Shown piece after piece: positions 5,927 to 54,161 of a stretch of 64,000 nt of DNA (positions are counted from its first letter, which is position 1; every line of letters starts with the position of its first letter). The stretch comes from a virus (Duplodnaviria; Caudoviricetes): positions 181,714 through 245,713 of the IMG/VR virus record IMGVR_UViG_3300014203_000001. One strand, 5' to 3'. The notes under the pieces were generated by a model. The model worked only from the letters and a program-made list of their open reading frames with translations, was not told the origin of the DNA and searched no databases. The translations under genes and the position numbers were made by a program.

Positions 5927-7747
5927 ATGAATCTTAAAGATCGAAAGGCAAAATATGAACCAAAGAAAAAACCACCTGAAGGTATTAAATTTAACTTTGA
6001 TTTGACTATGATGAATACATTCTGCTCATATTGTTTATCTGAGAACACTGCAGTACATAGGAATTCTCTTGTAAACCTAAATACTATTTTTAGTAAAATA
6101 GACGAGGCTATGTTCGAAAGCAACCAAGAGCTTATTATTAGATTCAGATTCTGTAAAGCTGCATTACATACTAAACTAGAGAAGAAAGTAACTAAAAGAG
6201 AATATGTTCTTAGAGATATTTATGGTATGATAGGATCGCAATTCGAATCACTCGATCAAAACAATTTCCAAGAATTAGCAAATACTGAGATTTCTTGGGT
6301 TGAAGAGATGATATCATCTTGTATGGATATAACTTTCATAAATAACAAAGTATCAGATCTGCAATATACTTGCACAGAGTATAACGGGGCTAGCTATGCT
6401 AGTAAAATGGGCATTGTAAATAAATTGAAGACACAGATAAATGAGATACAGACTCAATTTAGAAGAAATGATATTGAGAAAGACGGAGAGAATGACACAT
6501 TCAAATTATCCCAAGCAGGACCCGCCGTGTATGCTATATGTAATAAAAAGAATAGACCTTCTTATAAATTAGCCACTGGAATGCAAGGGTTTAATGATAT
6601 ACTTGCGGGAGGATTTGAGGGGGGTAGGGTATATTGTTTATTTGGTCTTCCTGGAGAGGGAAAAACTATCACTTTACTAAACTTATTATTCCAGCTTAAG
6701 AAGTATAATAGAAATTATGTCTGTAAAGATAAAACAAAACGCCCATGTATCGTTCTGCTAACGATGGAAAACCAAACAGAAGAAGGTATTCAAACTATGT
6801 TTAATATTGCCTGCTCATCTGAGGATCTTTCATCATACCCTCCAGAAGTAGCTCTTCAGTTAATGATGGCTAAAGAATTAGCTGTAACAATGGATTCCCC
6901 TATAGATATCGTCATTAAGTACAAGCCAATCAATTCAGTAAATACCAACTACCTATATAAATTAACAGAAGATCTTGAGGATGAAGGATACGAAGTTATC
7001 GCAATGCTTCAAGACTACATAAAACGAATCAAACCTATGGATGAAAACAAAGAAGAAAGATTTAGATTAGGTAATGTAATCAATGACTTCAAAAACTTTG
7101 CTATATATAAAGAGATACCTGTTATCACCGCTTCCCAATTCAACCGAGAAGCTGCTAGAATAGTAGATGAGAGCCGTGGTAGTAATAAAAACGACCTAGT
7201 TAAGAAACTAGGCAGAGCCAATATTGGAGAGTCTTCATTGATTGATGAAAATCTAGATGCCACTATATTTATTACCCCTGAATGGGTAGGAAATCAAAAA
7301 TATATGGGCTTCAAAATAAGTAAGCACCGATACAAAATGTTCACGAAAGTAGCCGCATTTTATCAACCATTCGAAGAAGGAAATGAAGTTAGACTTATGG
7401 AGGATGAAGGATTAACACGACCTCTATATAAAGAAAGTCTTGTTAGGGATGCAGACGAAATCAAGAAAACCTTCGGTGATACTATACGCTTCTCAACAGT
7501 TAGAGAGATTAAGGACATAGAAGAGTTAGAAGCAAATGAAAGTAAGCTAATTACTAGCGGAACTGTATATGGGGAAAATAAACAAGCCGCATATACTACA
7601 TATAAAGATCCTGTATATACGATTATAGCAGAAAGGGTGCCAATTCCACCTAAACCTGTATTAACTACTATTGTTGAAAGAGTACCTATTCCTCAGCCTA
7701 AATTAACTATTATTGCAGAGAGGGTAAAGATACCAGGTGTAGCATAA
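5927..7747 (+). CDS. dnaB: DnaB-like (SF4) replicative helicase
   Basis: Walker A GLPGEGKT, TMEN, QDY, TASQFNR; C-terminal tail with three IAERV-like repeats. Confidence 0.88.
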   Translation: MNLKDRKAKYEPKKKPPEGIKFNFDLTMMNTFCSYCLSENTAVHRNSLVNLNTIFSKIDEAMFESNQELIIRFRFCKAALHTKLEKKVTKREYVLRDIYGMIGSQFESLDQNNFQELANTEISWVEEMISSCMDITFINNKVSDLQYTCTEYNGASYASKMGIVNKLKTQINEIQTQFRRNDIEKDGENDTFKLSQAGPAVYAICNKKNRPSYKLATGMQGFNDILAGGFEGGRVYCLFGLPGEGKTITLLNLLFQLKKYNRNYVCKDKTKRPCIVLLTMENQTEEGIQTMFNIACSSEDLSSYPPEVALQLMMAKELAVTMDSPIDIVIKYKPINSVNTNYLYKLTEDLEDEGYEVIAMLQDYIKRIKPMDENKEERFRLGNVINDFKNFAIYKEIPVITASQFNREAARIVDESRGSNKNDLVKKLGRANIGESSLIDENLDATIFITPEWVGNQKYMGFKISKHRYKMFTKVAAFYQPFEEGNEVRLMEDEGLTRPLYKESLVRDADEIKKTFGDTIRFSTVREIKDIEELEANESKLITSGTVYGENKQAAYTTYKDPVYTIIAERVPIPPKPVLTTIVERVPIPQPKLTIIAERVKIPGVA

Positions 7748-12275: not shown

Positions 12276-13151
12276 ATGTGGAACAATAACTCTTGGGGAA
12301 ATAATGGTATGGGTGCAAATATGGGAACAGGATTTGCTAATACCAATACCCAAACCATTCCAATGAACCAAACTTTAACAAAAGAAGAATGCATTAAACT
12401 GCAAGAGAAAGGTCCTAAATTCTCATTCAACTTGACTGAGACTGAATACCTTCGTGCTATTTGTGCACACAAAGATCCTGTAAATGGAAATATCTCATTG
12501 AAAGATAATAATGATGGTACACATACTTGTGGGATTTGCCATGAAACATTTACTCTATTAGATCCAGATAAATTTGATCGCGCTGCAATTGAAGATATCT
12601 GCGCTGATTTCAATGATCTATTCCAAACGATTAAAACTATGTATGGTCCTGTGCCAATTGAAGCTGGTCGTGACTTCTACTCATTCGTAGGATTTATTCC
12701 TCATATACCTGAATTATACGAAGTAGCTTCAGAGTACTTTGGTAAGATTGAAAACACTGGTAGAGGTGTTACTGATAATCGTTCTATGCATGGAGCTAAT
12801 CTTCTTTATGCAATGATGAATCCTCAGTATCCAATGGGAGTTCCTATGGGAGCTGCAGTAAATGCACCGCCAAATGCAGATGCTAATTTCCAACAATACC
12901 AACAATGGTTAGCATCTCAACAACAAGCCCAACAACAGGGTCAACCACAATTCCAACAACCAACACAAAGTCAATTTGGTAGTGTACAAACACCAAATGC
13001 CAACTTTGCGGCAGGACAACCAAATCCAGCATATGCACCACAAAATAATGGATTTGTAAACCCAATCGGATTTGTCGAAGAAAATCAAACAGCCGCAGTA
13101 GGAGCACCTCCTACACCAGCAGCAAATGTAACCTCAGGATTTAGAAGCTAA
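12276..13151 (+). CDS. Zn-binding protein with N/G-rich N-terminus and Q/P/N-rich disordered C-terminus
   Basis: CAH...HTCGIC cluster; low-complexity ends; both promoter motifs upstream. Confidence 0.7.
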   Translation: MWNNNSWGNNGMGANMGTGFANTNTQTIPMNQTLTKEECIKLQEKGPKFSFNLTETEYLRAICAHKDPVNGNISLKDNNDGTHTCGICHETFTLLDPDKFDRAAIEDICADFNDLFQTIKTMYGPVPIEAGRDFYSFVGFIPHIPELYEVASEYFGKIENTGRGVTDNRSMHGANLLYAMMNPQYPMGVPMGAAVNAPPNADANFQQYQQWLASQQQAQQQGQPQFQQPTQSQFGSVQTPNANFAAGQPNPAYAPQNNGFVNPIGFVEENQTAAVGAPPTPAANVTSGFRS

Positions 13152-16756: not shown

Positions 16757-16818
16757 ATTACATACAAAAAGGCATCGTTAAGATGCCTTTATTTTTTATA
16801 AATAAAGGAGATACTACC

Positions 16819-17778
16819 ATGATTACTTATATTAAAAAAAGAGACGGTAAAGTAACGGACTTCAATGAAAGAAAAATCTCCAATGCAATTCTAGGAGCAA
16901 TGAAAGAAGTATGGGGAAAAGAAATTAAAGCATCTACTCAAGCTAATAGAGCTGCTAGTATTGCTAAAGATATAGCTAATGCTATGGAAGAATCAGTTGT
17001 AGAAGTAGAGAAAATTCAAGACTTAGTAGAAGATAAACTAATGAAGAAATTCCCTGAAGTTGCTAAAGCATATATTAAATATAGACAAGAACGTACTCGT
17101 ATTAGAGAGATGAATAGCGATATCAATAAGCATATTAAAGAAGCATTGAGCTGTTCTAATGTGCAAAATTCTAATGCTAATTTAGATGAATATTCATTTG
17201 GCGGTAGAAAGAACGAAGCATCTAATATTATTCAAAAAGAGTTGGCATTGAGAGATTTCATTTCTCCAGACGTAGCAGATGCTCATAGAAATAATGATCT
17301 TTATATACATGATTTATCTGAATATACAGTTGGCATGAGCAATTGCATGTTTATCGATTTTGGGAGATTGCTACGTTGTGGGTTTGGTACTAGAAATGGC
17401 GATGTACGACCAGCTAATACATTTGCAACTGCTTGCCAACTAGTGGCAGTAATAGCACAATGCACAAGTCAAACTATCTTTGGCGGTGTAGCTAGTTCTA
17501 GTTTAGATCATGAGTTAGCACCATATGTAAGAAAAAGTTTCTTGAAGCATTACAAAAAAGGTTTAAAATATGCCGATAGAAGAAAGTCAAAAACGTGGAA
17601 AGATTTTGATATACTTTATAATCGTGTATCTAAAACAGCTTCTATTATTGCTAAAGGTAATATTTTTAAAAATTATTCTAATGCCGCATATGAATATGCT
17701 ATAGATCTTTTAGAAGAAGAGGGATTACAAGCCACACAGGCATTATACCATAACTTAAATACTTTGGAATCTCGTGCT
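16819..17778 (+). CDS. nrdD: Anaerobic ribonucleotide reductase NrdD, exon 1
   Basis: ATP-cone (IKKRDG), YIHDL, NCMFID, ends NLNTLESRA; AAGGAG RBS. Confidence 0.92.
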
Positions 17779-19098
17779 TAACGTTGAGCGTGGGCACCTT
17801 ATACGGCGACGTATATGTAAAAACTCGTGAACGTAGAAATCTACGGTGTGTTATCGAATATTTCATTTGTATTAACTGCAGGAAATGGCAGCTAACGATA
17901 ATGCTAACTGGGAACGTTTAAGTTTTTATATGGTATTATACATCATATAAAAATAAAATAATCCAGTGCTAAGCTGTATTGTAGTGAGAGGTGTAGTAAA
18001 AATGGCATCGATACCATTAAAAGAATCAGACTATGTAGGAAAGATTTATGGGAATCTTACAGTATTAAAATTCGATGGATACCGAGGAAACTCAACTAGT
18101 TTATGCGTATCAGTAGAATGTAAATGTGGAAATACCAAGTCTGTCCAACTTGGTAGTTTAAAACGCGGAACAACTAGAAGCTGTGGCTGTTTGAACAGAG
18201 TTAAAGTGGATGATTATATAGGAAAAACATATAATCGACTAACTGTTTTTGGGCATCATAGAAACGAGACGGGAGACTTATTCCTAGATTGTGATTGTAA
18301 GTGTGGGAATACAGCATCTATCCGATTTTATGATGTACTCAGATCAGCGACTAAAAGCTGTGGGTGTTTAATTGCGGAAACGAATTCTATAAATAACAAA
18401 GCTAGAAAACAATATAATGAATTCGAATATATAGATGAAGATACTGTTAAAGTATGGCTATCTAACTGCAATGAATTTATGATCTGCGACTCTTCAACTT
18501 GGGATGTATTACGATATTATCTGTGGAGAAAACATCACGAAGGATATGCCACTGCCGATTTAGATGACGGTAGGATAGTTGCGTATCATGTTGTAATATT
18601 AGAATGCCCAACTGGATATGTAAGAGATCATATAAATCGAAATAGATTAGATAATAGATATTCTAATTTAAGAGTTGTAACACCTACAGCCAATGCTATA
18701 AATAGAACGCTTCTAGATAAAAACAAATCTGGACATCCTGGGGTCTATTTCGATAAATCTCGTAATAGATGGAGAAGTTTTTACGCAGATCCCATAACTA
18801 AACAAACAAAATTTTCTGATTTTACTACATATGAAGATGCTCTAAAAGATAGAATAGAAAAAGAGCAAACTTACTATAAGATAGAAAGTCTAACGACTAA
18901 CAAAATTATTAATATCCCCATAGTTAGTAGAATAATAGCAGAACGGGTTAATATTAATAAGAGTAGATAGCTTAAGGGTGAAATTCCCTTAGGTGAAGCG
19001 CGAGACTCTCATGGTAGTCATTTGTATCATGAGATGATGATATAGTCTATTCCCCTAATAAATATCGGGAAACCGAGGGTACAACGAGAAGGAATAAG
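17779..19098 (+). mobile_element. Group I intron in nrdD
   Basis: Splicing restores LESRA|GAQLPFSSIDFG; P1 GUGCU/GGCAC with U-G at the 5' splice site; P10 GUUGAGCGU pairs with exon 2 GCGCUCAAC; P7 elements GAGACU and GAUAUAGUC; terminal G at 19098. Confidence 0.9.
18002..18970 (+). CDS. Intron-encoded HNH homing endonuclease with AP2 domain
   Basis: Two CKCG...SCGC repeats, DHINRNRLDNRYSNLR (HNH), SGHPGVYFDKSRNRW (AP2); GAGGTG RBS. Confidence 0.9.
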   Translation: MASIPLKESDYVGKIYGNLTVLKFDGYRGNSTSLCVSVECKCGNTKSVQLGSLKRGTTRSCGCLNRVKVDDYIGKTYNRLTVFGHHRNETGDLFLDCDCKCGNTASIRFYDVLRSATKSCGCLIAETNSINNKARKQYNEFEYIDEDTVKVWLSNCNEFMICDSSTWDVLRYYLWRKHHEGYATADLDDGRIVAYHVVILECPTGYVRDHINRNRLDNRYSNLRVVTPTANAINRTLLDKNKSGHPGVYFDKSRNRWRSFYADPITKQTKFSDFTTYEDALKDRIEKEQTYYKIESLTTNKIINIPIVSRIIAERVNINKSR

Positions 19099-20763
19099 GG
19101 CGCTCAACTCCCCTTCTCATCAATTGATTTCGGAGATGATACTTCATTCGAAGGTAGAAAAATTACAGAGTGGTGTTTACGCGCTTCTATTGAAGGAATA
19201 GGAGAATTTCACCAAACTCCGATTTTTCCAATCTCAGTTTTTAAGCATAAGAAGGATATTAATGACAGACCAGGAACACCTAATTATGATCTAAAACAGT
19301 TAGCAATAAAATCTTTATGTAAATCTATATATCCTAATATGGTAAATAGTGATTGGTCTATGAACTGTGCAGATAAATTACTTACTCAATATATTATTTC
19401 AGATGATAACATTCCAAAGGATGCCCTACTTAATATTAGAATCGGAAATAAATTTCATAAAAGAATAAAAGCTAACGAGTTATGGGATAAAATTGTAGAA
19501 TTAGATGATGCTAAGATTAGCCATACTTATCATATAAATGGCACTATATCTATAGATTTGAGATTTACTGATACTATTGTTTGCATCGATGATAAAAATA
19601 GTCAATATAAAGATTATTCATTATCTGTAGATGAATGTATGGCTAAGATAAACTATATTTCAATGGATAAATTTTCTTATAGTATAACTACTGATAGTTT
19701 TGGATTTGATTATAATGAAAACGAACACTATCAACATCCAATTCCCGATTATGATTATGATACAGAAATGGCAACTATGGGATGCAGAACTTTAATAGGA
19801 TATGATGTTAATGGCATGGGATATAAAAAAACAGGTAGAGGAAATGTAACTCCTGTTACTATTAACTTAGCTAAGATCGGTCTGGACTATGGTATTGCAC
19901 TAGGTAAAAGAGCAGAAGCGGATATCGATGGGTTTGCGACCAAACTAAACTGTATGTTAGAACTAGCAGAAAAGGCTTTATTAAATAGATTTAATTATAT
20001 ATGCTCTCAGAATTATAAATCTGGTAGGTTTATGTATGTAAATGGCGTAATAGCCGATTCTAAAGCTAGTATAGAAAAAGGTATATTTGAATCTATGAAA
20101 CATGGAACTAATGCCATTGGTTATATTGGTGTTGGCGAAGCGATGTACGCACTTTTTGGTAAATATCATAACCAAGACAAGATAGTATTAGAATTTGCAA
20201 TTAAAGTTGTAGAAACTATACATAATTATGCTAAAGATGCTACTGCTCGTAATCACCTTAATTTCAGTGCATATGCGACTCCCGCCGAGGGCGCAAGTCA
20301 TACTATATGTAAAAACTTACAAAAAGAATATGGTAAAATCTCTGGTGTTTGTGATAGAGAATATATCACAAATTCACATCACGTGCCAGTATTTGAACAC
20401 GTATCAATATACGATAAAATTGATATTGAAAGCAAGTTTACTAAATACCCAGGCGGCGGGTGTATTACATATATTGAGATGGAATCTAATGTAATGAATA
20501 ACCCATCTGCGGTGGAGAAAGTAATAAACTTTGCTATGAGTAAAGATATACCATACTTCGCAATTAATTTTCCAATAGATAATTGTACTGAATGTGGATT
20601 CTCTTCAGAGATAGAAAATACTTGCCCTAAATGTGGCGCATCTTCTATATCTCGTCTACGCAGAGTTTCGGGCTACCTATCGACTTCCGTAGACAAGTTC
20701 AATAAAGGAAAACAAGCTGAGTGTAAGGATAGGTATAAACACTCTAAGAAAACAAAATTATAA
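19099..20763 (+). CDS. nrdD: Anaerobic ribonucleotide reductase NrdD, exon 2
   Basis: GAQLPFSSI, TPIFP, YPN, TMGCRT, GRGN, ATPAE, YITNSHH, CxxC-CxxC, RRVSGYL glycyl-radical motif. Confidence 0.92.
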   Translation, partial: GAQLPFSSIDFGDDTSFEGRKITEWCLRASIEGIGEFHQTPIFPISVFKHKKDINDRPGTPNYDLKQLAIKSLCKSIYPNMVNSDWSMNCADKLLTQYIISDDNIPKDALLNIRIGNKFHKRIKANELWDKIVELDDAKISHTYHINGTISIDLRFTDTIVCIDDKNSQYKDYSLSVDECMAKINYISMDKFSYSITTDSFGFDYNENEHYQHPIPDYDYDTEMATMGCRTLIGYDVNGMGYKKTGRGNVTPVTINLAKIGLDYGIALGKRAEADIDGFATKLNCMLELAEKALLNRFNYICSQNYKSGRFMYVNGVIADSKASIEKGIFESMKHGTNAIGYIGVGEAMYALFGKYHNQDKIVLEFAIKVVETIHNYAKDATARNHLNFSAYATPAEGASHTICKNLQKEYGKISGVCDREYITNSHHVPVFEHVSIYDKIDIESKFTKYPGGGCITYIEMESNVMNNPSAVEKVINFAMSKDIPYFAINFPIDNCTECGFSSEIENTCPKCGASSISRLRRVSGYLSTSVDKFNKGKQAECKDRYKHSKKTKL

Positions 20764-21679: not shown

Positions 21680-22186
21680 ATGAAATATGCCGATATATAT
21701 TATGACGATATCGCTAATGGAGAAGGTGTAAGAGCTGTACTATTTGTTAGTGGATGTAATCATAAATGTAAAGGATGCCATAATAAAAAGACATGGGACT
21801 TTAATTACGGAGAAGAGTTTACTATAGAACAACAAAATGAAATTATAGAATATTGTAAGAGAGAATATGTGAGCGGAATCACCGTCAGTGGAGGAGATCC
21901 GATGTACTCTGCTAAAGAACTCATTCTTTTTGTAAAGAGATTTAAGAAGGAATGCCCTGATAAAGATATATGGATTTACAGCGGGTTTGATTATATGGAT
22001 ATATTAGAAGATAAGAATATGAAATCACTACTAAAGCTATGCGATGTTCTAGTCGATGGACCATACAAAAAAGAACTAAAAGATGAAACTCTATCTTTTA
22101 AAGGATCTTATAATCAACGTATAATAGACATACGAGCTTCGCTATCTTTGAAATCAATTATTAATTGGGCTAGTACATTTTCATAA
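21680..22186 (+). CDS. nrdG: Anaerobic RNR activating enzyme
   Basis: NGEGVR, CNHKCKGCHN radical SAM motif, SGGDP, DVLVDG, FKGSYNQR. Confidence 0.95.
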   Translation: MKYADIYYDDIANGEGVRAVLFVSGCNHKCKGCHNKKTWDFNYGEEFTIEQQNEIIEYCKREYVSGITVSGGDPMYSAKELILFVKRFKKECPDKDIWIYSGFDYMDILEDKNMKSLLKLCDVLVDGPYKKELKDETLSFKGSYNQRIIDIRASLSLKSIINWASTFS

Positions 22187-22219
22187 TGGATAGAGAATGT
22201 CCACATAATAAAAGAGGAG

Positions 22220-22747
22220 ATGTTTATAATGAAATTTGAAAAAATTGGTGTTGAAACTTTCGCAGCGTTCTTATCTAGCAAAGGTGATGCTATGGAGTCA
22301 ACGCAACAACGGGAAGAAAAGATTACATATTTTTTAGAAGAGTTACCTTTACCTAAACGTGGCAGTGCTACTTCTGCGGGTTACGATTTCACTTGCCCAG
22401 TAGATGTATATATCGAACCAGGAAAGAGAGTACTTATTCCTACAGGTATTAAAGTACAATTAGGTATTGATAAGATTCTTAGCTTATACCCACGTAGCAG
22501 CTTAGGAACCAAATCAGATTGTATGCTAGCTAACACGGTTGGTATCATCGATTCTGATTATTATGGTAATGAGAATAATGAAGGTCATATCTTAGCTATG
22601 ATCAAAAACAATTCAGATGTGGCTGTTCAAATTAAACAAGGTGATAGATTCTGCCAAGGTATCATTAATCAATTCTTTACAGTTGAAGGTGATACTATCG
22701 GAGAAGGAAAGAAAAGAATGGGTGGCTTAGGTAGTACAGGTAAATAA
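22220..22747 (+). CDS. dut: Trimeric dUTPase
   Basis: All five motifs: SAGYD, RSS, GIIDSDYYG, GDRFCQ, RMGGLGSTG. Confidence 0.93.
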   Translation: MFIMKFEKIGVETFAAFLSSKGDAMESTQQREEKITYFLEELPLPKRGSATSAGYDFTCPVDVYIEPGKRVLIPTGIKVQLGIDKILSLYPRSSLGTKSDCMLANTVGIIDSDYYGNENNEGHILAMIKNNSDVAVQIKQGDRFCQGIINQFFTVEGDTIGEGKKRMGGLGSTGK

Positions 22748-22819
22748 TTATAATAAATAAAAATATAGTGGACTAGTCTATAATGGCTAGTCCACTATTT
22801 CTGTATATAATTTCTCAAT

Positions 22820-40606: not shown

Positions 40607-40712
40607 TACACATATACATAGGAGAGTATTATGCTCTCCTATTTTATTTTTTAATTCACGATTGACTTATATGTAATCACATTAGAATAAAATAAGAGGG
40701 AGAATGATAATT

Positions 40713-41873
40713 ATGTTACAAGCAAAAGTTATTGGTATTGGAGCTGCTGGAAATAAAGCTGCTATTAAATTAATCGAATCTGGAATTTTGGAAACTACTG
40801 ATGTGCTTCTCTTAAATAGTACATTAAAAGATGTCCCATCTGCATATAAACAATATGCTATTGAATTCGTTAGCTCAAGTAAAGGTTGTGCTAAGGAAAG
40901 AGATTTAGCTAGCCAAATCACTATGGATAACATTGCAAATGGATCTATTAACTTAGATGGGTTCTTAGCTCCAGAGGATAAAATGGTTATTATCTTAAAC
41001 AGTTCTGAAGGTGGTACTGGCTGTGGAGCAAGTACTGTTATTGCTAGATACTTTAGAGAAGTATTAGAAGTTAAAGTTCATATGTTCGTCTTTACAGGAT
41101 TCGAAGATGATAGTAGAGGTTTGAAAAATACGGTAGATTACTTCAAAGAGTTAGATCCTAGTTATGTAGTAGAAGGCGTATCTAATAAGAAATTCCTAGA
41201 TGAATTCTATGGTAATAAGATCAAAGCAGAGCAAGCTGCTAATGATGAATTCGTTAGTAGAATTACTATTCTATTAGGAAAATCTATTGTAGAATCCGAG
41301 CAGAATATTGATGCTAAAGATTTACTAAAACTTACTACTACACCTGGATATATGTCTATGTGTTATGGTAACTTAGGTAAGATTAAGAATGTAGAAGACT
41401 TCAACAAAGTTGTTACCTCTATCATTGATAATAACAAGTCTTTGGATACTAATCCTGGCTGTGTATGTTTAGGAGTTATTCTAAATATCACTGAGAAGAC
41501 TAGTAATTATATCGATCATAGATTCAAAGTAATCAGAGATAGATTTGGTGAGCCTAAAGATACATTCTTCACCCACATTCAAAACGTGCACGAAGATGAA
41601 TACATTCAAATTGTAGCCGCTGGTATGAAGATGCCTATTGATGAGATCAAAGCTGTATATGACGAGTTCTCTTCTCGTATGAATAGCATGGATAGATCAA
41701 AAGATGAGTTCTTTGGAATGGACTTCGATACAAAGATTGACTCATTTGATGATGGTAGTAATAAAGTATCTGCGTCGAAGATTCAAGAGAATAAAGCAAA
41801 CTTTCTAAGAAGCTTCGGAGCTAATCAACCTAAAGGAAAGATTATTAATACCAAAGTTTCAGATGAGATCTAG
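40713..41873 (+). CDS. Tubulin/FtsZ-family GTPase (TubZ/PhuZ-like)
   Basis: GIGAAG, GCAK, GGTGCG signature, T7 loop NIDAKD, acidic flexible tail. Confidence 0.88.
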   Translation: MLQAKVIGIGAAGNKAAIKLIESGILETTDVLLLNSTLKDVPSAYKQYAIEFVSSSKGCAKERDLASQITMDNIANGSINLDGFLAPEDKMVIILNSSEGGTGCGASTVIARYFREVLEVKVHMFVFTGFEDDSRGLKNTVDYFKELDPSYVVEGVSNKKFLDEFYGNKIKAEQAANDEFVSRITILLGKSIVESEQNIDAKDLLKLTTTPGYMSMCYGNLGKIKNVEDFNKVVTSIIDNNKSLDTNPGCVCLGVILNITEKTSNYIDHRFKVIRDRFGEPKDTFFTHIQNVHEDEYIQIVAAGMKMPIDEIKAVYDEFSSRMNSMDRSKDEFFGMDFDTKIDSFDDGSNKVSASKIQENKANFLRSFGANQPKGKIINTKVSDEI

Positions 41874-44277: not shown

Positions 44278-46701
44278 ATGAGTTCAAGTTTAAATCTAAC
44301 TGATATAACTTCAGAAATTCAAGAAAGACTACCTAGTATGGACTGCACTGTAGGGAAAGGTTACTTGCAACCAAACAACTGCACAAATTCTGGATCTAGA
44401 AAGAACATGCAGGGAATTCAGAAAGAACAAGGTATGCAACTAGAACATGGAGAAGCTGCAATTCTTATGACAGGTGGGGAAAACCAATTTGGAGAAGCAT
44501 CATCTTCATTCATAAGAGCAGACGCAAATTACAGAGTAATTGACAAAATATCAAAACACAGTGGTTCTGAATCGGCTGCTATCAGAGAATCGAACTATTG
44601 GTTAATACTGATAGACGAAGCAACTGGTACACTTCATACAACTGAAAGAATAGACTATAAGCATATAGTTGAAAGTTATGGCTATAGGTATGATAATACT
44701 TATATGGATAATCTCAAAATTGGCGATATCATACCTAATGGTACACCAATTAAGAAAAGTAGTTCATTTGATAGCGTAAATAATAAATGTGACGGTGTAA
44801 ATATAACGACAGTATATATGGCATCTGCTGCCACAACAGATGATCCTATTGTTATCTCAGATGTTGCTGCTGTTAAATTTGCAGCTCCATTGATAAGCCC
44901 AGTGCAAGTTCAGGTAAATGATAATGACATTTTACTTAATTTGTACGGAGATGATGATAACTATAAGACATTTCCAGATATCGGAGAGAACGTAAAAGAT
45001 GGAATTCTATGTGGAGTGAGAAAAGAACGTAAAGACGATGAAGCGTTATTCTCTCAAGCATGGGAACGACTAAAAGGTATAATGATATCTGACGAGACTT
45101 ATATAGCAAAAGGCAAAGTTATAGATATCAATGTTTATTGTAATAATCCAGAGAAATTACAAAGCTCCATATACAATAAACAAATAGCTAATTATTATTT
45201 TATGCATAGGCAATTTTGTTTGAATGTTCTATCTTGCATAGATCCTCTTCTAGAAACAGGATTGAAAATGTCGTATGATATGGAAAAATTATATTATAGA
45301 TGTAAAGCTGTTGTAGACGGCAAACAATATATCTATGATAAAGTATTCAATAATATAATCTTAGAACTTGTTGTTATGGAAATAATTCCATTAAACGCTG
45401 GGGATAAGATTACTAATAGATATGGTGGTAAAGGCGTTATATCCAAAGTATTACCAGTAGCAGAAATGCCACACTATAAATACTTAGGACAATGGGAGCC
45501 AGTAGAAGCTATATACAATAGTAATACTGTTGTCAATAGAGAAAACCCAGGACAAGAATTAGAAGTGTCTACTATCTTCGTAGGGTTGAAACTTATAGAA
45601 GATATTATTCTTAATAAACGATCATTAGAAGAAGCAGAGGATATGCTGTTCAGATACAAATCTATTATATCTAAGACAGAAGCTTCTGCTTATAAATGGA
45701 CTATCAATAACATGGAAGTTGCAGATAGAAGAAGCTTTATGGATAGCATCCTTTCTAATGGATATATCTATATAGTAGCAAAACCAATAACTGAAAGTAT
45801 GACACTTGATAAGCTAAGAGCTTTATACGCAGAATTCCCATGGATAGAACTATCAGAAGTGATGGTTCCATTAAAAGACTCTAATGGTAAATGGAGATAT
45901 ATAAAAGCTAGACGTAGATTGGTAACTGGTAAGCAGTATATTTATCGGTTAAAACAATTTGCGGAGGAAAAATTTAGTGCAGTGTCTCTCGCATCTACTA
46001 ATATTAGAAGTGAGAATACTAAATCTAAAATGAATAAACTTTATAAAGCGGTACATGCATCCACTCCAGTAAGAATTGGTGATATGGAAGCAGAAAATCT
46101 TATGCATATGGAAGTAGAATGTGTAATACAAGCATTAATGTTATTGTCTACATCTCCGTTAGCCAGAAGGCAACATGAAGAACTTCTAACTGGAAATCCA
46201 TTTGATATTAATATTAAACTGGATAAAGATTCTAAGAGTAGAAGTGTAGAAATAGTAAATGCTTATCTAAAGACTGCTGGTCTTAGATTGGTATTTGATA
46301 AGATACCTAAGAATAAGGGCAACACAGCTTTAAGAATAATAGCTACTAGAATTCCTGGAGCTATTGCACTTACTGATGTGGTAGAGAGGGTTCCTAAGTT
46401 CATAGAATGTATGGATACTCTAAAAGAACTAGCTAACAAACGAGCAGAAGTTCTTGATAGACCACTTAATATTGCATATCGTGTACCGTCACATATCAAG
46501 ACGCAAGAGGAAGCACAGCTATATATTCAAGACCAAGAAATGTCTAAAAATATTAGCGATGTACTTTCCTTGGTAAACGATGATGTAAAAACAATGGAAC
46601 AGCTAGAAGAAAGAGTAAACAATCCAGAAGTTCCAATAAAACTCACAGAAATAGTATCCAGAGTAATAGCAGAAAGGATACCAGATAATTTTGCCAAGTA
46701 A
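44278..46701 (+). CDS. Multisubunit RNA polymerase beta subunit, C-terminal half (probable non-virion RNAP)
   Basis: SGSRKNM, DDPIVIS, GDKITNRYGGKGVIS, NRENPGQ, YIYRLKQ, RIGDME; early promoter motif at 44227. Confidence 0.9.
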   Translation: MSSSLNLTDITSEIQERLPSMDCTVGKGYLQPNNCTNSGSRKNMQGIQKEQGMQLEHGEAAILMTGGENQFGEASSSFIRADANYRVIDKISKHSGSESAAIRESNYWLILIDEATGTLHTTERIDYKHIVESYGYRYDNTYMDNLKIGDIIPNGTPIKKSSSFDSVNNKCDGVNITTVYMASAATTDDPIVISDVAAVKFAAPLISPVQVQVNDNDILLNLYGDDDNYKTFPDIGENVKDGILCGVRKERKDDEALFSQAWERLKGIMISDETYIAKGKVIDINVYCNNPEKLQSSIYNKQIANYYFMHRQFCLNVLSCIDPLLETGLKMSYDMEKLYYRCKAVVDGKQYIYDKVFNNIILELVVMEIIPLNAGDKITNRYGGKGVISKVLPVAEMPHYKYLGQWEPVEAIYNSNTVVNRENPGQELEVSTIFVGLKLIEDIILNKRSLEEAEDMLFRYKSIISKTEASAYKWTINNMEVADRRSFMDSILSNGYIYIVAKPITESMTLDKLRALYAEFPWIELSEVMVPLKDSNGKWRYIKARRRLVTGKQYIYRLKQFAEEKFSAVSLASTNIRSENTKSKMNKLYKAVHASTPVRIGDMEAENLMHMEVECVIQALMLLSTSPLARRQHEELLTGNPFDINIKLDKDSKSRSVEIVNAYLKTAGLRLVFDKIPKNKGNTALRIIATRIPGAIALTDVVERVPKFIECMDTLKELANKRAEVLDRPLNIAYRVPSHIKTQEEAQLYIQDQEMSKNISDVLSLVNDDVKTMEQLEERVNNPEVPIKLTEIVSRVIAERIPDNFAK

Positions 46702-53486: not shown

Positions 53487-54161
53487 ATGAGTATAGCAAT
53501 TGAAAGAAAAGAACTACGTAGGCTAAATGGTTTGAATATAGTGGGGGAAATGGCTGCTGGGATGGCACATGAAATTCGAAATCCTATGACTACAGTACGA
53601 GGATATGTCCAGTATATAAGTGCAAAAGACACTAAGTATACACAGCAATTTGAGATTATGTTAGAAGAGCTAGATAGAGTTAATCTAATTATAACAGAGT
53701 TCTTAACTTTAGCTAGAGATAAAAAGGTTGAATTGAAGCGTTGCGATCTCAATAATATGGTACACAATATATATCCTCTTATCAATTCAGATGCGATATT
53801 ACATAATAAAATAGCGTCTATAGATTTGCATACAATACCAGAGATACTAATAGATGAGAAAGAAATACGTCAGCTAATATTAAACTTAACGCGTAATGGT
53901 CTAGAAGCTATGGATGAAAAGAAAACCTTAACTATAGCTACGTTTACAGATAAAGATTCTACTGTTCTTGCTATAAGAGATGAAGGACATGGAATAGATC
54001 CAGAAGTGCTTAAGAATATAGGCACTCCTTTTGTTACAACTAAATCTAACGGAACAGGTTTGGGTTTAGCTATATGCTACAGTATTGCTAATAGAAATCA
54101 TGCAGAAATAACAATAGATACGAATACTAATGGGACTACATTTTATGTAGCTTTTAAATAA
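53487..54161 (+). CDS. Sensor-less histidine kinase (HisKA + HATPase_c), sporulation-kinase-like
   Basis: AHEIRNP H-box, NLTRNGLEAM N-box, DEGHGI G1, PFVTTK F-box, GTGLGL G2; only about 12 residues precede the DHp domain. Confidence 0.93.
   Translation: MSIAIERKELRRLNGLNIVGEMAAGMAHEIRNPMTTVRGYVQYISAKDTKYTQQFEIMLEELDRVNLIITEFLTLARDKKVELKRCDLNNMVHNIYPLINSDAILHNKIASIDLHTIPEILIDEKEIRQLILNLTRNGLEAMDEKKTLTIATFTDKDSTVLAIRDEGHGIDPEVLKNIGTPFVTTKSNGTGLGLAICYSIANRNHAEITIDTNTNGTTFYVAFK

Follow-up and report, generated by a model that had tools for sequence, protein, structure and literature searches.

Homing endonucleases encoded in phage introns depend on reaching the DNA that they cut. The nearest described case to the one reported here is gp210 of PhiPA3, an intron-encoded HNH homing endonuclease of a nucleus-forming jumbo phage, which gives its phage an advantage over a co-infecting relative and which is imported into its own phage nucleus and excluded from that of PhiKZ (PMC11620839). 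Access of gp210 depends on the chimallin/PicA import system; import in chimalliviruses is reported to be determined by PicA, and no linear tag is described for gp210 (PMC11620839). Phage group I introns also occur in nrdD, for instance the T4 sunY/nrdD intron, and HNH intron endonucleases of the I-HmuI type are a further related group. In literature searches, we found no description of an appended docking tail on those enzymes.

Short peptides that recruit many unrelated DNA enzymes to one hub are a second point of comparison. Clamp-binding motifs and PIP boxes lie at the N- or C-terminal ends of polymerases, ligases, nucleases, helicases and RNase H, are sometimes present in several copies and all bind one hub; in T4, the C-terminal tails of gp43, gp33 and gp55 bind gp45, such that transcription factors are included. 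In bacteria, the C-terminal tip of SSB (DDDIPF) likewise organises many genome-maintenance proteins, though here the peptide sits on the hub. Furthermore, viruses, mainly those of eukaryotes, mimic short linear motifs of their hosts, and such motifs arise easily because they are so short.

Here, we describe an HNH endonuclease, encoded within a putative group I intron in nrdD of an uncultured AR9-like jumbo phage, whose C-terminus carries a short peptide that the phage's own replication and transcription enzymes also carry. As with gp210, the gene lies in an intron in an essential gene of a jumbo phage and its effect would depend on reaching the place where phage DNA is kept, and as in the T4 intron, the intron lies in a conserved catalytic region of nrdD with the ORF in a peripheral loop. 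In contrast to gp210, access would go through a short peptide shared with the phage's own enzymes, and the tail is traceable to a 32-nt insertion relative to its closest ortholog. In contrast to the SSB system, the peptide sits on the clients, and in contrast to other cases of motif mimicry, the "host" is itself a virus, the mimic is a mobile intron endonuclease and the mutational step (a loop insertion plus a frameshift) can be read directly. Literature searches returned no report of a homing endonuclease with a docking motif and no report of this motif.

Results

The stretch of DNA analysed (the window, 64,000 nt) is the last 64 kb of a 245,713-bp IMG/VR virus record (IMGVR_UViG_3300014203_000001, positions 181,714 to 245,713) with direct terminal repeats and 32% G+C. 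The C-terminal half of its RNA polymerase (RNAP) beta subunit is 34% identical to AR9/PBS1 gp089, the non-virion RNAP subunit. Many uncultured relatives exist on contigs of 180-330 kb; searches with single proteins found no close viral contigs, whereas a query with an alignment did. The features are collected in Table 1.

Table 1. Positions of the features in the window
Position	Strand	Feature	Basis
16783..17778	+	nrdD exon 1 (anaerobic ribonucleotide reductase, N-terminal part; start codon uncertain)	tblastn with intact NrdD of relatives ends at 17778; the last codons read ESRA, and GCU gives the U of the 5' splice site
17779..19101	+	Putative group I-type intron, 1323 nt, carrying the endonuclease ORF	Joining the exons (exon 2 starts at 19102) gives ESRA|GAQLPF, as in NrdD of relatives; read by eye, GUGCU can pair with GGCAC at 17792-17796 (P1) and the intron ends in G at 19101; weak Rfam Intron_gpI hit over 18940-19069, which includes GAUAUAGUC (18.2 bits, gathering score 50)
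18002..18970	+	HNH_3 (AP2-like) homing endonuclease ORF, 322 aa from ATG 18002 (ORF listed from GTG 17966)	Homologs start at this Met, and GAGAGGTG lies upstream
18906..18960	+	Conserved peripheral intron hairpin, arms 18906-18915 and 18951-18960	ViennaRNA folds of three introns
18915..18946	+	32-nt insertion relative to the closest ortholog (contig L019), encoding (I)PIVSRIIAER and shifting the frame by +2	DNA alignments; the ortholog protein ends ...TTNKIIDN
18920..18949	+	Tag proper, IVSRIIAERV, a doubled hydrophobic-hydrophobic-x-Arg-hydrophobic motif	Profile score and null distribution; AlphaFold2 predicts an isolated helix
18950..18970	+	Seven-residue end NINKSR... plus stop, read in a new frame from sequence that is non-coding in the ortholog	DNA alignment; probably incidental, as it does not match the PDNF end conserved in RNAP beta orthologs
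44278..46701	+	Non-virion RNAP beta C-terminal half (ortholog of AR9 gp089) with a 135-aa extension carrying five motif copies, the C-terminal copy at 46651-46680	Arg and Pro of the copies invariant or nearly so in 20 orthologs
7607..7747	+	Tail of the DnaB-like helicase with three Pro-spaced motif copies	Orthologs in the relatives G002 and G005 keep tags in their tails

The earlier note had observed that the intron endonuclease ends almost identically to RNAP beta, and this observation is confirmed. The endonuclease ends in ...NIPIVSRIIAERVNINKSR and the RNAP beta C-half in ...TEIVSRVIAERIPDNFAK, each followed by a stop. Over the tag, IVSRIIAERV is matched by IVSRVIAERI, with eight of ten residues identical and two conservative, and in both proteins seven more residues follow and the Ser lies 14 residues before the stop. 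The likely start of the endonuclease is the ATG in Table 1. Pfam finds HNH_3 (PF13392) at 35.5 bits (cut-off 24.8), and D209, H210, N218 and N234 are invariant in 65 homologs. The AP2 domain named in the note is plausible but not established, since Pfam AP2 scores only 17.1 bits (cut-off 33.3), the AlphaFold2 model has three strands plus a helix at residues 248-291, and a Foldseek search of the PDB with the model gave no significant match. The nrdD gene of a relative, G002, is contiguous across the insertion site of the intron, i.e., an intron-less allele exists. The identical endonuclease is on record from two contigs, so an assembly artefact is unlikely.

Pairwise identity alone is not decisive, because shuffled proteomes of this A+T-rich phage give 14-16 unrelated 10-mer pairs with 8/10 identity or better. 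However, the tail belongs to a motif family (hydrophobic-hydrophobic-x-Arg-hydrophobic, often followed by Pro), and this is decisive. The pattern [IV][AV]xR[VI] occurs 29 times against 6.3+-2.5 in shuffles, and 18 times against 2.0+-1.5 within 45 residues of protein ends, an enrichment of about nine-fold. A 12-column profile built from 39 instances without the endonuclease scores its tail 23.1 bits, rank 4 of 272 proteins, and none of 15.2 million shuffled positions reaches that score (null rate below 7e-8 per position). The codons of the two tails differ (Ser AGT/TCC, Val GTT/GTA, Arg CGG/AGG), and a blastn-short search of the genome found no donor longer than 14 nt. The likeness is therefore at the peptide level.

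The carriers are a DnaB-like helicase (three copies), an SF2 helicase (doubled copy at the C-terminus), the non-virion RNAP beta C-half (five copies), a second RNAP subunit (N-terminus), the NAD-dependent ligase, DNA polymerase pieces, RNase HI (clear in the relative G001) and several small proteins of unknown function. All carriers with a recognisable function act on DNA or RNA. Motif positions are conserved in RNAP beta, ligase and DnaB orthologs; the RNAP beta orthologs compared extend down to 30% identity. The helicase of AR9 ends in DSGIPF, which shows that tails of this helicase family are used for docking. The motif is enriched in the genomes labelled G000, G001, G002 and G005, the last three being relatives, but not in AR9 or in a further relative, G003. 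G003 may use an R-hydrophobic-hydrophobic-x-P dialect instead, and its free-standing HNH protein begins with the same 5-mer, VMRLV, as its own RNAP tail. Among HNH genes of other relatives, G001 has a near-match (6.5 bits, rank 16 of 193) and G002 a weak one. These three cases are suggestive only.

To see how the tail arose, we searched exhaustively with a profile and obtained 59,522 homologs. Of the best 150, only two show the motif near an end, and in both it lies inside a folded element. The closest homolog, P0121, is 67% identical over 304 residues without a gap and stops one residue after the point where the tail begins. Its 1.1-kb contig (L019) also carries 5' and 3' intron sequence, and alignment to it reveals the 32-nt insertion in the window, by which the old TAA is bypassed and seven more residues are read. 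The insertion lies in the loop of a hairpin that is found in the window, in L123 (the intron of the tailed ortholog described below) and in L019, with arms of 10, 9 and 9 bp, respectively, that differ by compensatory changes. A peripheral ribozyme loop is a place where extra sequence is tolerated.

A search at finer clustering found two more orthologs, P0272 and P0273, each in the same GyrB-DHH-nrdD-nrdG-dUTPase-GyrA neighbourhood. P0272 (66% identical) has the insertion at the same site and reads VVSRLVVSRV. Relative to the window, it shows four synonymous codon changes, four hydrophobic-to-hydrophobic changes and a change at the free x position, such that both Arg and the hydrophobic positions are kept despite eight changed codons. 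This tail scores 14.8 bits, against a null rate of about 3e-6 per position. The substitution pattern is typical of selection on the peptide, although selection cannot be quantified from only two tailed sequences, and the ends of the insertion pair with each other (CCC with GGG), so that the codon of the second Arg is also under RNA constraint. P0121 and P0273 lack the tail. Four-point distances favour (window, P0272) against (P0121, P0273), which fits a single gain or loss event; the direction is not rooted, but a gain is more parsimonious, because more distant homologs end near the same point. The note had set the presence of the tail in homologs from unrelated hosts as a refutation of its reading, and this condition is not fulfilled: apart from the one ortholog in a related phage, none of 149 other homologs has the tail.

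With respect to structure, an AlphaFold2 model of the endonuclease with 65 homologs has a confident core (pLDDT above 85 up to about residue 300 of 322) and a low-confidence helical tail (pLDDT 46-59), i.e., the tail is modelled as flexible and outside the endonuclease fold. In the RNAP beta extension, the tag-bearing segments 679-703 and 788-807 have pLDDT below 50 and flank a small confident helical domain.

We also looked for a common partner of the tagged proteins. Three sliding-clamp families (PF02768, PF09116 and PF00705) gave no hit, and the PhiKZ Rhc protein matched only the RNase H domain of a 231-aa protein, with no homolog of its clamp domain detected, though a divergent clamp or a host clamp is not excluded. 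A 254-aa two-repeat protein next to nrdD was considered as a clamp candidate but was dropped, since it has no family hits and its structural neighbours in the Atlas are unrelated. PhiKZ chimallin (gp054) and PicA (gp069) found nothing at E<=10; as single-sequence searches, these are weak negatives. Selecting genes present in tag-using genomes and absent from AR9 gave 44 candidates, too many to choose from. A clade-specific 291-aa protein with a Zn-ribbon core and long Q/P-rich low-complexity regions was not identified by searches of Pfam, of the PDB by profile or of the Atlas.

Discussion

The analysis shows that the 18-residue tail of the endonuclease is a real copy of a short linear motif, doubled exactly as at the C-terminus of RNAP beta; that it traces to a 32-nt insertion or deletion in the terminal loop of a conserved intron hairpin, which also moves the reading frame past the ancestral stop; that it lies outside the predicted fold; and that it is kept in a second orthologous endonuclease. 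What we infer from the pattern alone is its function. In this view, the tail would be translated, would form a short amphipathic helix and would bind the same, as yet unidentified, phage- or host-encoded partner as the phage's own enzymes. This would concentrate the selfish nuclease where phage DNA is being replicated, recombined and transcribed, and so favour cleavage and recombination-dependent copying of the intron; cleavage and homing are themselves inferred for this enzyme. It could equally favour damage to a co-infecting intron-less relative. One short peptide at the flexible ends of many unrelated nucleic-acid enzymes, often in several copies, is the pattern of clamp-binding and PIP motifs and of the gp45-binding tails of T4. 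However, the consensus (QL[SD]LF or Qxx[LIM]xx[FY][FY] in clamp-binding motifs and PIP boxes) is unrelated, since none of the 39 instances has a Gln or an aromatic pair, and the motif has an invariant Arg often followed by Pro. The tail of the endonuclease has Asn where many copies have Pro. Furthermore, two of the three close orthologs and the genome's other intron endonuclease do without the tail, so any benefit is dispensable. On balance, we consider docking somewhat more likely than not.

The note had inferred that a selfish element carrying the tag argues for a role in access to phage DNA, by targeting or licensing, rather than for a replisome-specific one, and this interpretation is only partly supported. 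That the endonuclease acquired the tag is supported more strongly than could be seen from the sequence alone, and the tag is indeed not replisome-specific, because it sits on transcription as well as replication and repair enzymes. The preference for licensing or compartment access is not supported.

An address label for entry into, or retention in, a secluded replication compartment or condensate, which the endonuclease would have needed to reach phage DNA, is the strongest of the alternatives, but we regard it as unlikely. In its favour, the phage is a jumbo phage with a tubulin/PhuZ-like gene, many carriers have several motif copies, as condensate clients often do, the 291-aa low-complexity protein exists, and gp210 of PhiPA3 provides a precedent for selective import. 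However, no chimallin or PicA homolog was found within the limits given above, and no linear signal is named for PicA-dependent import (PMC11620839). Gyrase A and B, the Dda-like helicase and the UvsX-like recombinase all act on DNA yet carry no tag, and the same holds for the second intron endonuclease, a NUMOD4/HNH_3 ORF that splits the DNA polymerase gene (uninterrupted in G001), and for two of the orthologous endonucleases. The tag is therefore not needed to reach phage DNA; it looks like an optional docking advantage.

It is also possible, though improbable, that the insertion is an RNA-level feature extending a peripheral hairpin, or a neutral indel, and that the peptide is a by-product without function. 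The insertion sits exactly in a hairpin loop, its ends pair, the endonuclease evidently works without it in relatives, where the ORFs are intact, and no partner is known. However, an RNA constraint cannot explain the match to a peptide profile built from other proteins, most of the tag codons lie in the unpaired loop, the L123 copy changes codons but keeps both Arg and all hydrophobic positions, and there is no DNA donor in the genome from which the sequence could simply have been copied.

Still less likely is a recognition site for a protease or a modifying enzyme, such as a timed degron, a head-protease site or an Arg modification site, which would place the endonuclease under the same control. 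IIAE|R fits the T4-type I/L-x-E rule, and Arg is the only invariant residue. However, the residue before Arg varies freely (E, T, S, Y, K, F, A), such that a Glu at P1 is not conserved, the RNAP carrier is the non-virion enzyme and not a capsid cargo, and three to five copies on one protein are hard to explain as a degron. Chance is very unlikely: although 8/10 matches do occur in shuffled proteomes, both tails lie at the same distance from the stop, both belong to a motif family enriched at protein ends, and the endonuclease tail is conserved in L123 and has a profile score that no shuffled position reaches.

A more far-reaching reading, which is doubtful on present evidence but not excluded, is that the Arg motif is the client code of a previously unknown organiser of genome transactions in AR9-like jumbo phages, i.e., a chimallin-independent hub or condensate that gathers replisome, repair and non-virion RNAP, and that mobile-intron endonucleases repeatedly evolve the code of their own phage to get in. 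Two hints support this, namely the tail shared by the window and L123, and the N-terminus of the free-standing HNH protein of G003, which copies that phage's own variant of the RNAP tail.

If the tail is a docking peptide, this is a clean natural experiment, in which a selfish element living inside a virus copies that virus's own protein-recruitment code, and in which the single mutational step can be seen and is paired with tail-less sister alleles. That would give a direct handle on the function of the whole tag system in a large, uncultured clade of giant phages. The endonuclease tail is the smallest portable unit that selection has already moved to a new protein, and in this view it defines what is sufficient: about ten residues, both Arg, the hydrophobic positions, and no need for the Pro. 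It would also suggest that homing efficiency or inter-phage competition can depend on sub-cellular recruitment, as was shown for PhiPA3 gp210 by a different route.

Further features of the phage and its relatives

A second mobile endonuclease, with a NUMOD4 domain and a weak HNH_3 match, splits the gene for the C-part of the DNA polymerase at motif B, whereas the relative G001 has one uninterrupted ORF of 704 aa. The endonuclease carries no tag, and an Rfam search found no group I intron there. In another relative, G002, nrdD is uninterrupted at the site of the window's intron, but is broken by three or four other insertions of 0.3-1.1 kb. nrdD appears to be an intron hotspot in this clade.

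Locations of the additional features
Record	Position	Strand	Feature
Genome, outside the window (locus L028:1306-2091)	22005-22790	+	NUMOD4/HNH_3 (weak) endonuclease, 261 aa
Genome (locus L023:1483-2178)	124103-124798	+	RNase HI protein, 231 aa
Window	12276-13151	+	Zn-ribbon/low-complexity protein, 291 aa
Window	40704-41873	+	Tubulin/PhuZ-like protein
Window	53487-54161	+	Histidine-kinase-like protein, 224 aa
Relative G003, loci L087-L099	9589-10461 and 201136-203724		Free-standing HNH endonuclease and RNAP beta genes
Relative G002, loci L110-L122	about 77.9-82.8 kb		nrdD with other insertions
AR9, locus L131			DnaB-like helicase

The 291-aa protein has an N/G-rich start, a Zn-ribbon core, in which C63, H65, C85 and C88 are invariant in five orthologs, and a long Q/P/N-rich low-complexity region that ends in a conserved tip, [DN][VI]xxGF[KR]. 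It is conserved in the clade and has no BLAST hit in AR9, and it is a candidate for an SSB-like hub or a condensate scaffold. The tubulin/PhuZ-like protein, whose match to Pfam Tubulin lies at 28 bits, below the cut-off, is conserved in tag-using relatives and has no BLAST hit in AR9. The phage also encodes a histidine-kinase-like protein, in which both HisKA and HATPase_c score above their cut-offs.

With respect to the tag itself, the RNase HI protein ends in ...PKIIAARRVLNW. Its ortholog in G001 reads PKIVATRVLNW and scores 21.7 bits with the tag profile, whereas this phage's copy seems to have an extra Arg that spoils the motif. Unlike PhiKZ Rhc, the protein has no clamp domain.

The DnaB-like helicase of AR9 ends in ...KDSGIPF, which resembles the C-terminal tip of bacterial SSB, while AR9 shows no enrichment of the Arg motif. 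Different lineages therefore seem to use different docking codes on the same helicase tail. In the relative G003, a free-standing HNH endonuclease begins with MQKKQVMRLVP, and the RNAP beta of the same phage ends in ...ERVMRLVNP. Eight of eleven R-hydrophobic-hydrophobic-x-P matches in that genome lie near protein ends. This may be a second, independent case of an endonuclease that copies the tag dialect of its phage.
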